From an uncultured Fibrobacteria bacterium (GTDB taxonomy: Bacteria; Fibrobacterota; Fibrobacteria; UBA11236), in assembly GCA_963716395.1 (NCBI GenBank), contig OY970309.1:3328001-3392000 (forward strand): a stretch of DNA of 64,000 bases, given 5' to 3'. This document shows positions 19,264 to 24,091 of this stretch, one piece after another (the first letter of the stretch is position 1; every line of letters begins with the position of its first letter). The position numbers were made by a program, and so were the translations under genes. A model generated the notes under the pieces. It saw only the letters and a list, made by a program, of their open reading frames with translations. It had not been told where the DNA came from and searched no databases.

Positions 19264-20631
19264 ATGCTATTTCGTGAATTGAATTTAATTCCCACCATTT
19301 TATCCGCGCTACAGGCCAAAGGATATGAGACCCCCACGCCTATCCAGGCCGCGGCCATTCCTCCCGTGCTGGAGGGCAAAGATCTGCTGGGTTGCGCGCA
19401 AACCGGCACGGGCAAAACCGCCGCCTTCGCCCTGCCTATCTTGCAAACCTTGGCCGGAAAACCTCCGGCCGACCGCGGGCGTAAATATATCCGCGCCCTC
19501 ATTTTGGCGCCGACGCGCGAGTTGGCGTTGCAAATCGGAGAAAGCTTTCAGGCCTATGGCCGCGATTTGAACCTGCGTCTGGCCGCGGTTTTCGGCGGCG
19601 TCAGCGACTTCGGGCAAAAGCAAAAGCTGCGGCAAGGCGTCGACATTCTCGTGGCCACGCCGGGCCGGCTCATGGACCTACACGCACAACGCGTGTTGTC
19701 GCTGGATCGCGTCGAGATCTTCGTTCTGGACGAAGCCGATCGCATGCTCGATATGGGCTTTGTCCACGATGTGCGCCGTATCGCGGCTTTGCTGCCGGCC
19801 AAGCGCCAAACCCTGTTGTTTTCGGCCACCATGCCGCCGGAGATTCGCTCGCTTTCCCAAAGCCTTTTGCATGCTCCCGTCATGGTCGAGGTGGCGCGCG
19901 TTTCGTCGACCGCGGATAACGTGGATCAAGCCGTCTACCACGTCCCGCGCAATCTCAAGCCCGATTTGCTGCGGCATCTGCTGGCTGATGCGAATGTTCA
20001 GCGGGCCCTGGTTTTCACCCGCACCAAACACGGCGCCGACCGCCTGCACAAAACGCTGGACCGCCATCGCATCGCCGCGGAAGCGTTGCATGGCAATAAA
20101 ACCCAAGGCGCCCGCCAACGGGCCCTGGAAAATTTCAAGCGCGGAAAAACGCGCGTGCTGGTTGCCACCGACATTGCCGCGCGCGGTATTGACGTCACCG
20201 ACATTTCGCATGTCTTCAATTACGATTTGCCCGAAGTGCCGGAAACCTATGTGCATCGCGTGGGCCGTACGGCCCGCGCCGGAGCGACCGGAATGGCCGT
20301 GGCTTTCTGCGACGTGGATGAGCGCGGCTATTTGCACGGCATCGAACGTCTGACACGCAAACGTCTGGATGTGCTGCCGTTGCCGGTGTTCGCTGGCAAC
20401 GCGTCGGGGGCGGCTTCGGAGGTACAGGCCGATCCGCAGGAACGTCCGCTTCACCCGTCTTCCGCATCGCACCGATCGCCCCGATACGAAACCCGAAGCC
20501 AGGAACCGGCCCGGACTCCCCAATCGGAACACCGCGGGCCCGAGCACTCGGCAACCGGCCCGCGCTTTGGCCGTCGCCATGGTTCGAATTTCGAAGGTCG
20601 CGGCAAGGCCCGCAACTTTCGCGGCCGATAG
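19264..20631 (+). CDS. rhlE: DEAD-box ATP-dependent RNA helicase (RhlE-like)
   Basis: Q motif GYETPTPIQ, AQTGTGKT, PTRELA, TPGRL, DEAD, SAT, ARGID, HRVGRTAR; basic disordered tail; RBS AAGGAG. Confidence 0.93.
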   Translation: MLFRELNLIPTILSALQAKGYETPTPIQAAAIPPVLEGKDLLGCAQTGTGKTAAFALPILQTLAGKPPADRGRKYIRALILAPTRELALQIGESFQAYGRDLNLRLAAVFGGVSDFGQKQKLRQGVDILVATPGRLMDLHAQRVLSLDRVEIFVLDEADRMLDMGFVHDVRRIAALLPAKRQTLLFSATMPPEIRSLSQSLLHAPVMVEVARVSSTADNVDQAVYHVPRNLKPDLLRHLLADANVQRALVFTRTKHGADRLHKTLDRHRIAAEALHGNKTQGARQRALENFKRGKTRVLVATDIAARGIDVTDISHVFNYDLPEVPETYVHRVGRTARAGATGMAVAFCDVDERGYLHGIERLTRKRLDVLPLPVFAGNASGAASEVQADPQERPLHPSSASHRSPRYETRSQEPARTPQSEHRGPEHSATGPRFGRRHGSNFEGRGKARNFRGR

Positions 20632-20743
20632 CGGTTCACTTCCCCACCGATGTCTGGCCGTTTGCGTTGTGCAGAAAATGGCCGATTTATTAACTTTCAT
20701 GTGCTTTGATCCATTTGTGGGTCAGAGCGCTTTGATTTCTGGC

Positions 20744-21013
20744 CTCAGTTGGTAGAGCAAGTCCGCCGCAGGCGGATTAATCGCTCGACGAACTGAGACT
20801 TCAGAGGTTTGATTTGGTGCCTGATAGCTCAGTTGGTAGAGCAAGTCCGCCGCAGGCGGATTAATCGCTCGACGAACTGAGACTTCAGAGGTTTGATTTG
20901 GTGCCTGATAGCTCAGTTGGTAGAGCAAGTCCGCCGCAGGCGGATTAATCGCTCGACGAACTGAGACTTCAGAGGTTTGATTTGGTGCCTGATAGCTCAG
21001 TTGGTAGAGCAAG
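20744..21013 (+). repeat. 84-bp tandem repeat (~3.2 units): tRNA-Asn nt 1-28 + palindrome TCCGCCGCAGGCGGA + tRNA nt 35-45 + 30-bp spacer
   Basis: TGCCTGATAG recurs at 20818, 20902 and 20986; palindromes at 20762, 20846 and 20930; the first unit lacks tRNA nt 1-10. Confidence 0.97.
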
Positions 21014-21359
21014 CGACTGTTAATCGCTCGGTCCCTGGTTCGAGTCCAGGTCAGGCAGCCAACCTTGTATCCCAAGTGTTTCAAGCCTACGCACTTCGTT
21101 CTCCTGCTTCCGGCCTATTCTATTTCGGGCATACCAATGATTTGGATCGACGATTACGGGAACATAACGACCCCGCACGCGACTCACGGCATTTCACCCG
21201 AAGACATTTGCCATGGGTGCTCGTTTACTCCGAATCCTTTTTGACCAGGTCCGAAGCCATGAAAAGGGAAAAATTTTTCAAATCGGGCCAAGGAAGGGAA
21301 TGGTTAAAGCAAAAATTGGCCGAAGAAGAGTGTGGTAGAGCAAGTCCGCCGCAGGCGGA
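20930..21359 (+). mobile_element. Putative 430-bp tRNA-carrying GIY-YIG element (innermost copy), bounded by the GCA palindrome at both ends
   Basis: Palindrome-[tRNA 35-45]-spacer-intact tRNA-Asn-GIY-YIG-[tRNA 17-28]-palindrome. Both junctions read TGGTAGAGCAAG-TCCGCCGCAGGCGGA-TTAATCGCTCG. Mobility is inferred, not shown. Confidence 0.55.
20986..21061 (+). tRNA. tRNA-Asn (anticodon GTT), intact
   Basis: 76 nt: TGCCTGA/TCAGGCA acceptor stem, GCTC/GAGC D-stem, AGCGA-CTGTTAA-TCGCT anticodon arm, CCTGG-TTCGAGT-CCAGG T-arm, G-CCA end. Confidence 0.97.
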
Positions 21360-21363
21360 TTAA
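21076..21363 (+). CDS. Small GIY-YIG nuclease (copy 1, 95 aa)
   Basis: GTG start; AYAL...FYFG (GIY-YIG variant), T.DL.RRL.EHN, PW.LVYSE, A.KREKFFKSGQGREWL. Confidence 0.9.
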   Translation: MFQAYALRSPASGLFYFGHTNDLDRRLREHNDPARDSRHFTRRHLPWVLVYSESFLTRSEAMKREKFFKSGQGREWLKQKLAEEECGRASPPQAD

Positions 21364-21401
21364 TCGCTCGGTCCCTGGTTCGAGTCCAGGTCAGGCAGCC
21401 A
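21333..21401 (+). pseudogene. 3' fragment of tRNA-Asn (nt 17-28, palindrome, nt 35-76)
   Basis: Retains the T-arm and CCA; lacks the 5' acceptor strand; anticodon destroyed by the palindrome at 21345-21359. Confidence 0.9.
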
Positions 21402-21415
21402 ACCTTGTATCCCAA

Positions 21416-21703
21416 GTGTTTCAAGCCTACGCACTTCGTTCTCCTGCTTCCGGCCTATTCTATTTCGGGCATACCAATGATTTGGATCGACGATTACGGG
21501 AACATAACGACCCCGCACGCGACTCACGGCATTTCACCCGAAGACATTTGCCATGGGTGCTCGTTTACTCCGAATCCTTTTTGACCAGGTCCGAAGCCAT
21601 GAAAAGGGAAAAATTTTTCAAATCGGGCCAAGGAAGGGAATGGTTAAAGCAAAAATTGGCCGAAGAAGAGTGTGGTAGAGCAAGTCCGCCGCAGGCGGAT
21701 TAA
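21416..21703 (+). CDS. Small GIY-YIG nuclease (copy 2, identical to copy 1)
   Basis: Exact 340-bp shifted duplicate of 21076-21363. Confidence 0.9.
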   Translation: MFQAYALRSPASGLFYFGHTNDLDRRLREHNDPARDSRHFTRRHLPWVLVYSESFLTRSEAMKREKFFKSGQGREWLKQKLAEEECGRASPPQAD

Positions 21704-21741
21704 TCGCTCGGTCCCTGGTTCGAGTCCAGGTCAGGCAGCCA
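21673..21741 (+). pseudogene. Second 3' fragment of tRNA-Asn
   Basis: Identical to 21333-21401; palindrome at 21685-21699. Confidence 0.9.
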
Positions 21742-21755
21742 ACCTTGTATCCCAA

Positions 21756-22004
21756 GTGTTTCAAGCCTACGCACTTCGTTCTCCTGCTTCCGGCCTATTC
21801 TATTTCGGGCATACCGATGATTTGGATCGACGATTACGGGAACATAACGACCCCGCACGCGACTCACGGCATTTCACCCGAAGACATTTGAGCCCAATCG
21901 CCATCCTCGTGCCGAACCCGAGCAATGAAGGTTTTTGCCGACGCGCTACACTCGGATATGGACATGCGAAAGAATGCATGGCGAAATTCCTGGAACCAGA
22001 GTGA
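21756..22004 (+). pseudogene. Truncated GIY-YIG nuclease (copy 3)
   Basis: Matches copies 1/2 (one N>D change) up to FTRRHL at 21890, then reads into unrelated sequence and loses the C-terminal half with the conserved Glu. Confidence 0.85.
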
Positions 22005-22162
22005 GTCAGGTTCGCAAGCGGGTGCATTTTCGTCGTGGGAGTTGCAGCCATAACCCGCCGATTTGATCAAAAGCGACCGGCCGGTTTTTCCACGCCCAAC
22101 CAAGACACTACTGCGCAAATGCAGTATTCTTTGTTGGGACAACTGGCTTTGCCTAGGATCAC

Positions 22163-24091
22163 ATGCGTTGGAAAATTATTTTCGTCTTCGGACTGCCTTT
22201 GTGGGCTGTGGCCGCTTCCCCACCTGCGGATTCCGTGGGTTCCGCCGAGCAGACGCAGGCGCGGGTGTATTTGAAGCAGCGTTTGCTGCAACTCAATCTG
22301 GAATTTCCATTCTCGACGTGGGCCCGGCGCCTCGATTCCCTGAACAATGAAATCGACGGCTTTCTAGCCCACCATCAACCCATGCGCTATGATCCGGCGT
22401 TGCGACCGGAGTTGCTGCGTTTTTCCGCAGCCTTGGATTCGGCGCGCGCCGAACGGCCCCAGGTGCAATCCCTCATCCATGAGATGTACGTGCAAATCAT
22501 GGTGGGGCGTATCCAAGAAGCTTTCCGCCGCGACGGCAAGACGCTGAGTCCGCAGGGGCGCGACGCACTGTATCGCGCCCTCAAGCCCTATGAGGCCGGC
22601 AGCCTGCGCCCTAAAACCGACTTTCTGGCCCAACTAGTTTCTTTGGATAGGAAATTTTCCCATGCCTACTCAACCTGGCTGTTCGAATGGGCCGGGGCCT
22701 GGTTTCCTCATTTATTGGCGACGCAATCGCAAGACACCGGTTTCGCCGCCGAAGAAGCCCAGCGGCAGGATCTGGCGCTGCAACTCGAATATTGGACGCG
22801 GCAAATCGACTCGGGCGGGGCAGCCCAGGCTGTGACCCATTTTCGGCAATTGCAGACCGAATTGCTGCAGGAAAGGCCGAGGGCGCTGGCCGACTTGCGC
22901 AGCATGGAAGCCAATCTCGATCCCGACATGTTGCTGAGCGACTTGTTGGAAGAGGCTCAGAAAGAAGGGCTTTCCTTCACCGTAGAGGCCGAAGAGCGGG
23001 TCGAAGCGGCGCTGGATGCGCGCGGACAATCCGTGCTGCTTCCCATGCGGGACAAAATCGACACCTGGATGCGTTTTGACCAAGCCCTGCAAAACGCCTT
23101 GACGCGCGCGCAGGCCACGGTGGATCGGAATCAACAGGCGATCACGGCGCATGCTGCCGAAGAACAGCAAGAACAGCAAGCGCAGCAGGAATTGGCCGCC
23201 CGCACCGAACAGGAGCAATGGGAACAACAGCGCCAGGCGGAAGAGCAGCGTGAACGCGAAGAACAGCAGCAACAACAAGAACAAGCGCGGCTGGCGGCTT
23301 TGGCCGCCGAGCAGGACTCGGCCGATGCGGCGGAGCGGGAACAGGCCGAACAAACCTTGGCGGAATGGAAAAGTTTGCAAGCCGGCGGCGCGCTGGCAGG
23401 GTTGGACGGGGCTACCGACAGCGCACTTGCCGTACACGCCGGAACTTTGAAAACCAGCACCGTGGCCAGCGGACGGACGCGGTTGCAGGTCGCGTCCCGA
23501 AAGTTTTCCGATACGCTGGCCTTTGTGGAAAAATTCACCGTGGACGAAAGCCACATCGATTTGTCCAAACTCAGCCTCGATCAAAAAGCTTCGCAATCGG
23601 CCTATGTCTACACCTCGCCGACCGGGCGCACCAACCCGCGCGATCTGGATCAATTCGTGCAGAACGTGGCGCTGGGATCTTTTAACACCGAATACCGTTT
23701 CCTTTCCTACCTGGTTCCGGAACGTCTGCGGTGCGGCCGCGATCTGGCTTGGGAATTCGATCGATCTTCCCAACCCGTTGTTCACGACCGGGTTTTCAGC
23801 TATGTCGATTTGGTGGACGACGCGCATCACAAACACGCTAAAGGCACCGGGACGCCGGCCGAGGGAGCGGAGATGAATCTGCCCGCGAATTTAATCGTTA
23901 TTTTCGACGCCCAAGGCGGCATTATGCGCTATCAATCCTTCGGCCATCCGGACCAAATATTCATCCGCCCGCAAGACCTGGTCGACGGGCGGCTGCATTA
24001 CAAGTTTTTAAACTACAGCGTCGATCGCGAAAACATCTATCTCAACGGGATCGATCCCGAGATAAAGGTCAGCGCGCCCGCCTCGGGCTGA
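22163..24091 (+). CDS. Exported hypothetical protein with Q/E-rich coiled-coil linker
   Basis: 642-aa ORF, signal peptide (MRWKIIFVFGLPLWAVAA), EEQQEQQAQQ...EQQQQQEQ region; family not recognised. Confidence 0.75.
   Translation: MRWKIIFVFGLPLWAVAASPPADSVGSAEQTQARVYLKQRLLQLNLEFPFSTWARRLDSLNNEIDGFLAHHQPMRYDPALRPELLRFSAALDSARAERPQVQSLIHEMYVQIMVGRIQEAFRRDGKTLSPQGRDALYRALKPYEAGSLRPKTDFLAQLVSLDRKFSHAYSTWLFEWAGAWFPHLLATQSQDTGFAAEEAQRQDLALQLEYWTRQIDSGGAAQAVTHFRQLQTELLQERPRALADLRSMEANLDPDMLLSDLLEEAQKEGLSFTVEAEERVEAALDARGQSVLLPMRDKIDTWMRFDQALQNALTRAQATVDRNQQAITAHAAEEQQEQQAQQELAARTEQEQWEQQRQAEEQREREEQQQQQEQARLAALAAEQDSADAAEREQAEQTLAEWKSLQAGGALAGLDGATDSALAVHAGTLKTSTVASGRTRLQVASRKFSDTLAFVEKFTVDESHIDLSKLSLDQKASQSAYVYTSPTGRTNPRDLDQFVQNVALGSFNTEYRFLSYLVPERLRCGRDLAWEFDRSSQPVVHDRVFSYVDLVDDAHHKHAKGTGTPAEGAEMNLPANLIVIFDAQGGIMRYQSFGHPDQIFIRPQDLVDGRLHYKFLNYSVDRENIYLNGIDPEIKVSAPASG

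Follow-up and report, generated by a model that had tools for sequence, protein, structure and literature searches.

The DNA analysed here is a stretch of 64,000 nucleotides (the window) of contig OY970309.1, from an uncultured Fibrobacteria bacterium whose genome is assembled as one 3.75-Mb contig and is 99.2% complete. ARAGORN and Rfam call a single intact tRNA-Asn(GTT) in the window. It lies beside a small gene of the GIY-YIG nuclease family and between partial copies of itself, in which a short DNA hairpin, called H below, stands in the place of anticodon-arm sequence. The nuclease gene and the hairpin form a cassette at the tRNA-Asn gene that keeps one intact tRNA, carries hairpin-capped partial copies and has recently been amplified in tandem.

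The sequence of H, TCCGCCGCAGGCGGA, occurs five times in the window, always inside a partial tRNA-Asn copy, where it stands in for tRNA nt 29-34. In the intact tRNA-Asn these positions (21014-21019) read CGACTG, and the flanks are identical to those in the partial copies. Exact matches to TCCGCC-N3-GGCGGA start at 20762, 20846, 20930, 21345 and 21685, all five with the loop GCA; the expectation is 0.03 per window according to 100 dinucleotide shuffles, none of which reached five. A preliminary description of this DNA had claimed that the 15-mer replaces CGACTG in all five tRNA fragments, and these matches bear it out. H is calculated to fold with about -8 kcal/mol on either DNA strand, against -3.9 and -4.6 for the native arm. 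A terminator scan called no H site a terminator and no T-run follows H, while a promoter scan of the locus gave no promoter-like site. With a permissive threshold, Rfam returned for 20500-22100 the intact tRNA and a chance-level YrlA match (E=0.6), and nothing else. A small intron or a split tRNA was considered and rejected, as the native sequence is replaced and not merely interrupted, and the copies lack half of the tRNA.

The copies are arranged in two tandem families (Table 1). The upstream family has a period of 84 bp and 3.2 copies with 100% identity (20744-21013), each unit being formed by tRNA nt 1-28, the hairpin, tRNA nt 35-45 and a spacer of 30 nt. The downstream family has a period of 340 bp and 2.6 copies with 99% identity (21020-21890), and its unit is formed by tRNA nt 35-76, the open reading frame (ORF) of the nuclease, 12 nt of D-loop sequence and the hairpin. 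The two families have nothing in common but a core of 38 nt (at 20750-20787 and in four other copies), made up of 12 nt of tRNA, the hairpin and 11 nt of tRNA.

Table 1. Features of the tRNA-Asn locus, in window coordinates.
Feature	Position	Strand	Remarks
Decayed leftmost 5' tRNA-Asn fragment	20740..20761	+	18 nt (20744-20761) match the tRNA; 7 nt of acceptor/D region gone
H copy 1	20762..20776	.	6-bp stem, GCA loop
tRNA nt 35-45 (11 nt) and 30-nt spacer	20777..20817	+	last 16 spacer nt resemble native upstream flank
84-bp unit with H copy 2 (20846-20860)	20818..20901	+	tRNA nt 1-28, H, nt 35-45, spacer
84-bp unit with H copy 3 (20930-20944)	20902..20985	+	tRNA nt 1-28, H, nt 35-45, spacer
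Intact tRNA-Asn(GTT)	20986..21061	+	sole tRNA-Asn gene of the genome
GIY-YIG ORF copy 1, 95 aa, GTG start	21076..21363	+	last 31 nt are tRNA-derived sequence and H copy 4 (21345-21359)
tRNA-Asn 3' part (nt 35-76) after H4	21360..21401	+	
GIY-YIG ORF copy 2, identical to copy 1	21416..21703	+	ends through H copy 5 (21685-21699)
tRNA-Asn 3' part (nt 35-76) after H5	21700..21741	+	
GIY-YIG copy 3	21756..21890	+	one substitution, N21D; truncated after about 45 codons at the repeat end, unrelated sequence beyond

The 95 residues encoded by the ORF are filled by the catalytic domain (GIY-YIG, residues 4-70; Pfam E=6e-15), with no separate DNA-binding domain, and an NCBIfam search of the protein returned no family. 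Family members measure 73-109 aa; the window protein keeps all 17 of the columns that are at least 80% conserved in 42 of them, including Y5, Y16, R26, H30, N31 and E65. The reading frame is preserved through the hairpin because the exchange adds nine nucleotides (15-6=9). The ORF passes H and acquires the tail GRASPPQAD, translated from the tRNA fragment and the hairpin, with the TAA of the anticodon loop as its stop. One other GIY-YIG domain was found in the genome, in an ORF of 711 aa, and the window gene is the sole small one. A tblastn match at genome position 83925, similar to the tail of the ORF, turned out to be unrelated sequence with no tRNA fragment. A scan of viral contigs for close relatives of the protein gave none, and a protein search of a plasmid collection gave two YazA-type genes and nothing else.

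In a genome of the same genus (G005, 99% complete) the syntenic upstream DEAD-box helicase gene, with 71% nucleotide identity, is followed by a lone tRNA-Asn, 97% identical, without nuclease gene or tRNA fragments. Since this site is empty, the cassette is an insertion in the lineage of the host. Other relatives carry only distant GIY-YIG genes, with the exception of G035, described below.

Homologous loci, hairpin classes and dispersal

A scan at one genome per species yielded 60 homologous loci, with 35-69% identity over the best segment, in Planctomycetota, Verrucomicrobiota, Bacteroidota, Ignavibacteriota, Chlorobiota, Acidobacteriota, Patescibacteria and other phyla. A same-strand tRNA gene is found within 400 nt upstream or 200 nt downstream of the gene at 42 of the 60 loci, and 13 of the 18 loci without one are interrupted by a contig end. 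The tRNA genes used belong to 15 isotypes. Partial copies of the adjoining tRNA are common, arrays included: L081 has ten 5' halves of 74 bp, L057 has three, and L070 and L072 have three to five gene-bearing units. In these copies a hairpin with a TCC...GGA stem replaces either the whole anticodon arm or the 5' portion of it that extends to nt 34. At least one such hairpin is located near the gene at 49 of the 60 loci, and the density of these hairpins is 1.81 per kb near the genes against 0.50 per kb further off, while five control stem heads give 0.45-0.63 per kb. The earlier contention that the substitution is not random decay is strongly supported, since hairpins of this kind recur in the partial tRNA copies next to homologous GIY-YIG genes of many phyla. 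The arrangement in the window is a local case of this general pattern of tRNA-lodged cassettes.

Two of the loci are particularly close to that of the window. L030, in a metagenome-assembled genome of the Phycisphaerales, encodes a protein 56% identical with the same C-terminal ending, and carries the identical 15-mer at the junction between nt 34 and nt 35 of its own, different tRNA-Asn. In G035, which holds the closest homologue (47% identical) among 60 relatives searched, the order is two upstream units, the intact tRNA-Asn, the nuclease gene and then a pseudo-copy whose hairpin is nearly identical. This pseudo-tRNA, after the nuclease gene (locus L017, 1360-1500, minus strand), has two extra inserts, one being a 35-nt palindrome in the hairpin region and the other a 46-nt insert in the T arm that holds a second TCCGCC hairpin. 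It seems that dead tRNA copies collect hairpins.

The extent of tRNA sequence retained beside the hairpin follows a regular pattern. Downstream of the gene, the copies retain only 4-15 nt (about 11) of tRNA 5' of the hairpin and on the other side reach the tRNA 3' end; upstream of the tRNA, they retain all of the 5' half and, in most cases, 5-16 nt 3' of the hairpin. The short side stays short both where the hairpin comes after nt 25-28 and where it comes after nt 37, which points to a junction distance measured from the hairpin.

Some of these loci deserve attention on their own account. At L075 (2383-2456) a hairpin-bearing tRNA-Val pseudo-copy is called by ARAGORN as a tRNA with a four-base anticodon, an annotation trap. 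Many of the homologous loci end contigs, and L051 is a contig of 666 bp with a tRNA-Cys and the gene, whose coverage, by the record titles, is roughly double that of a large contig from the same assembly, which suggests multi-copy cassettes that break assemblies.

The hairpins fall into four classes, TCCGC, TCCCGA, TCCCGG and short TCCC, which cluster on the protein tree: 17 class changes are required, compared with 25.6 when the labels are shuffled, and none of 200 shuffles was as low. The host phyla are mixed within the protein clades. The class of the cassette is matched by the hairpins found throughout the genome. TCCGCC-N3-GGCGGA has 64 sites in the host genome (3 for the reversed control), 27 in G035 (control 0), 13 in G038 (control 1) and at most 11 in each of the other 38 of 40 relatives, for some of which the controls are similar. 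Five further genomes with a cassette of the same class have 53, 9, 14, 11 and 4 sites, against 1, 2, 0, 6 and 1 in five genomes with cassettes of other classes. Reciprocally, TCCCGG-N5-CCGGGA has 11, 11 and 10 sites in genomes of its own class, many of them inside arrays, versus none in the host and 1 in the L030 genome. Class-specific dispersal is seen in 12 genomes besides the host.

H is the commonest hairpin of the host genome with a 6-nt stem and a 3-nt loop (64 sites, against 28 for the next), and the pattern is specific for a 3-nt loop. A GNA loop is present on one strand at 37 of the 64 sites, in agreement with the preliminary assignment of H to the C-GNA-G triloops. The sites are depleted from long open frames, which contain 26 of the 59 located outside the locus compared with 90% of random positions. 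By flank similarity 31 of these 59 are singletons, and 19 belong to one family with long terminal inverted repeats resembling a miniature inverted-repeat transposable element (MITE). The terminal inverted repeats of this family are about 20 nt long, with 44 arm matches in the genome (G000:C1), for example at 139213-139267, 1041776-1041830, 1244544-1244598 and 2888429-2888615. Short members enclose one TCCGCC hairpin and long members (about 170-190 bp) enclose two or three, and a member at 2195503 has no hairpin. A search of the host genome for a Y1/RAYT transposase (PF01797) gave no match; as a control, the same search was positive in 6 of 14 known genomes.

Comparison with known nucleases and mobile elements

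The closest parallel that we have found is SsnA of Neisseria, a single-domain GIY-YIG protein of 94 aa (Chenal et al. 2025, PMC11893778). SsnA binds a hairpin repeat with a TTCCC...GGGAA stem as single-stranded DNA only, and cuts a few nt upstream of it; 71% of SsnA homologues have such repeats nearby, the repeats multiply genome-wide, and the repeat-gene-repeat layout was noted by the authors as resembling an insertion sequence (PMC11893778). The window family shares with Ssn the single GIY-YIG domain of about 95 aa, a gene flanked by a GC-rich hairpin whose stem starts with TCC and ends with GGA, the multiplication of this hairpin across the genome, mostly outside genes, and the pairing of hairpin variant with protein variant. 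It differs from Ssn in its lodging in tRNA genes and in the hairpin that takes the place of the anticodon arm. The word tRNA does not appear in the main text of PMC11893778; of its 14 supplementary files the scope was the list of 29 genomes. The resemblance to Ssn is close.

The published degenerate SRM motif, with its conserved GTC upstream, does detect canonical repeats beside the GIY-YIG genes of two other loci, so the motif test works. These are small GIY-YIG genes of L022 (973-1405, in G004, of the same genus) and L023 (1361 and 1811, in G037), flanked by near-canonical Neisseria-type NTS/SRM repeats with no tRNA nearby. This bacterial group thus has both classic Ssn-type pairs and the tRNA-lodged type.

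Among nucleases associated with tRNA genes, SegB is a GIY-YIG enzyme encoded beside the tRNA genes of T-even phages. According to the available passages of its description, it makes double-strand breaks in tRNA-containing DNA, and these breaks, together with homology between a tRNA and the 3' end of its own gene, lead to tandem tRNA-nuclease repeats (PMC13096335). The same passages give the two points of likeness with the window, a GIY-YIG gene adjoining tRNA genes and a tRNA-plus-nuclease unit amplified in tandem. SegB is, however, a larger phage enzyme, and neither a conserved hairpin nor a replacement of the anticodon arm is mentioned in them. Homing endonucleases in general join the nuclease domain to a separate DNA-binding domain (PMC11893778), which the window protein lacks. 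A homing enzyme would be present or absent at a conserved target that is altered in carriers; G005 has an empty site, but in the host genome the native target is intact beside the gene.

The preliminary description had also compared H with hairpins of the repetitive extragenic palindromic (REP) type. The comparison holds as an analogy, given that REP sequences and the mosaic elements built from them (BIMEs) with RAYT, and likewise IS200/IS605, involve a short hairpin that is recognised in single-stranded DNA, multiplied genome-wide and clustered in mosaic elements. It does not extend to the enzyme, which is of another class in those systems and whose Y1/RAYT gene is missing from the host genome. 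No GIY-YIG enzyme is known to form the covalent intermediates used by the REP/RAYT or IS200/IS605 transposases.

Islands inserted by integrases into tRNA genes likewise keep an intact tRNA and leave a partial direct copy flanking the insert. In contrast, the window insert measures about 300 bp and has no integrase, its units of 84 and 340 bp contain the GIY-YIG ORF only, both the 5' and the 3' halves of the tRNA are duplicated, and a conserved hairpin sets the copies apart from plain duplicates. The host genome has a case of the integrase kind elsewhere: 48 nt from the 3' part of tRNA-Arg(TCG) recur exactly at G000:C1:1053967-1054014, 11.4 kb away from the gene at 1065442-1065518, as integrated elements with att sites usually leave behind. 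YazA/UPF0213 proteins are of similar size and the same fold family as the window protein; they differ in being encoded in a conserved housekeeping neighbourhood, trmNF-yazA-rsmI, with no tRNA fragments (two plasmid records). None of the literature searched describes small GIY-YIG cassettes lodged in tRNA genes of bacteria, with a hairpin in place of the anticodon arm. The available part of PMC9897764 deals with integrase- and CRISPR-derived tRNA fragments in archaea, and that of the preprint 10.64898/2026.09.22.753630 uses SsnA repeats as a benchmark only.

Proposed mechanism and alternatives

On balance we lean towards the proposal that an Ssn-like nuclease recognises H as its cognate hairpin in single-stranded DNA and that H marks the junctions of tRNA duplications made by the cassette and later amplified in tandem. 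The nuclease gene and the hairpin would constitute a small selfish cassette that lodges in tRNA genes and always leaves one intact tRNA, here the sole tRNA-Asn. The hairpin would disable the spare copies, which could not act as tRNAs because anticodon-arm sequence has been replaced. By analogy with Ssn, we infer that the protein binds the hairpin where the DNA is single-stranded, as it may be at a replication fork or in a tRNA gene under heavy transcription, and nicks a few nt 5' of it, roughly 11-12 nt away and on either strand. Breaks at this proposed distance would account for the 38-nt core shared by both families. Driven by such cuts, repair between the duplicated tRNA halves (direct repeats of 28 and 42 nt) would create and expand the two families, the outcome being three 84-bp units upstream and two and a half gene-bearing 340-bp units downstream. 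One insertion may have split the resident tRNA, and re-insertion of the cassette into its own tRNA, or unequal exchange, may then have produced three upstream and three downstream units. The oldest units would be the outermost, in line with the decay of the leftmost fragment and the truncation of the last gene copy. The hairpin would also have spread to the 59 other, mostly non-coding sites of the host genome, partly inside the MITE-like repeat.

Several observations weigh against this proposal. The SRM motif has no match at the window locus or at any of the 60 homologous loci, and in the host genome it has 15 matches versus 12 in the reversed control. The 43 tRNA-lodged proteins form a clade of their own (support 92), apart from those of L022/L023 and from YazA/UPF0213; the window protein gives similar BLAST E values with both outside groups (4e-12 versus 3e-11 and 3e-10), and its best matches in the PDB are UPF0213 proteins (1ywl, 1zg2). 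Because the motif fails at all 60 loci and the clade is separate, strict membership of the window family in Ssn is not established. The activity of the protein and of its clade is predicted from sequence, and tandem arrays need only unequal recombination, with the same arrays resulting in the absence of any nuclease. The spacing of about 11 nt cannot be fully told apart from fixed positions in the tRNA, the two being separated only at a few loci such as L070 and L032, and, as kin share labels, the clustering on the tree and the genome counts are not independent samples. Finally, 59 of the 64 H sites in the host genome have no GIY-YIG gene or tRNA fragment nearby, and another cause of spread is possible. 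The link between genome-wide copies and GIY-YIG or tRNA loci, for which a count had been suggested in the preliminary description, is not found for these 59 copies but reappears across genomes.

The same description had left the choice between a site recognised by the nuclease and an immunity edit. In the latter case a homing nuclease would cut the native anticodon-arm region and repair would copy the cassette in, the hairpin being the replacement that makes the leftover copies uncuttable. This is in keeping with the occurrence of free-standing GIY-YIG homing endonucleases in tRNA clusters and the cutting of tRNA-containing DNA by SegB, as given in the available passages of PMC13096335, and also with the replaced segment always spanning the anticodon arm and with the absence of the cassette from the same-genus relative. 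Nevertheless, the intact tRNA-Asn keeps its native arm beside two intact nuclease genes and would be cut continually, and the native arms of Asn, Val, Lys, Ser and other tRNAs have no common sequence that an enzyme of 95 aa could recognise. An immunity edit needs no conserved sequence, yet the TCC...GGA hairpin is found at 49 of 60 loci and tracks the protein clade, and neither the 59 further copies in the genome nor the class-specific dispersal elsewhere would be explained. We thus regard an immunity edit as unlikely, though it is still a rival, and recognition by the nuclease fits better because the hairpin class follows the protein clade, the dispersal is tied to the class of the cassette and Ssn provides an analogy.

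It is a good deal less probable that H is a passenger, that is, an independent REP- or MITE-like repeat which inserts into stem-loops, those of dead tRNA copies included, with no functional link to the GIY-YIG gene. The 19 of 59 outside sites in the MITE-like family and the extra hairpins in the anticodon and T regions of the G035 pseudo-tRNA would agree with such a repeat. The host genome, however, has no Y1/RAYT transposase gene, all five copies at the locus have the same sequence and keep register with the repeat units, L030, from a distant phylum, has the identical hairpin at the identical tRNA position, and the hairpin class follows nuclease clade and cassette presence across genomes. Slightly more improbable again is a role at the RNA level, in which the hairpin would act as a stabiliser, processing signal or terminator of the nuclease mRNA, or would bar pseudo-tRNAs from translation. 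The window ORF does end inside the hairpin region, several loci exchange the 17-nt arm for a hairpin of 16-17 nt with tRNA-like geometry kept, and ARAGORN accepts one hairpin-bearing copy of L075 as a tRNA. The lack of a T-run after H and the negative terminator scan speak against it, and such a role needs no TCC...GGA sequence and leaves the class-specific dispersal in non-coding DNA unexplained. That the perfect tandem copies are a mis-assembly of a single cassette is hardly credible, even if the copies are 99-100% identical and homologous loci often end contigs. The genome is one contig, similar arrays appear in independent assemblies (e.g. L081, L057, L070 and L072), and the hairpin observation survives even with a single cassette. 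Four soil-metagenome runs with low shares (0.27, 0.07, 0.07 and 0.00) gave one variant contig and two exact short contigs over repeat junctions. The two exact contigs show no mismatch across the junctions of gene, hairpin, tRNA and gene (21117-21478 and 21626-21781), the source sample being possibly the same.

A bolder extension of the nuclease-recognition proposal, which we advance tentatively and consider rather doubtful as a whole, would make the cassette a mobile element of a new type. Its nuclease, a single-strand nickase guided by the cassette's own hairpin and cutting about 11 nt from it, would use the universally conserved D-loop and T-arm segments of tRNA genes as portable homology arms. 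The cassette would in this manner enter tRNA genes of whatever isotype, in phylum after phylum, with one working tRNA rebuilt each time. The hairpin would seed genome-wide repeat families, and the arrays would record how the cassette inserted again and again into its own intact tRNA.

What is new in the window is the identity of the hairpin between distant phyla and the class-specific genome-wide dispersal that connects a tRNA cassette with the Ssn paradigm. Should the hairpin prove to be the site of the nuclease itself, hairpin nucleases of the Ssn type would be tied to a widespread lodging of tiny GIY-YIG genes at tRNA loci. This would explain the odd arrays of pseudo-tRNAs by which tRNA annotation is misled, why assemblies break at tRNA genes, where some genome-wide families of hairpin repeats come from, and how a 300-bp element can cross phyla with the most conserved genes as landing pads. 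Each nuclease-hairpin pair is a candidate sequence-specific cutter of single-stranded DNA, and the protein tree with its hairpin classes is a ready list of candidate pairs.

Sequences flanking the array

A terminator-like hairpin with a T-run is located at 20701-20740, immediately before the leftmost tRNA fragment, and probably serves the DEAD-box helicase gene as its terminator. In the 84-bp units, the 30-nt spacer is similar to this hairpin in its 3' part. Downstream of the tRNA-Asn the synteny with the same-genus relative is lost, and the array is followed by an ORF of 642 aa (22163-24091), which matches no Pfam family and contains a long Gln/Glu-rich stretch.

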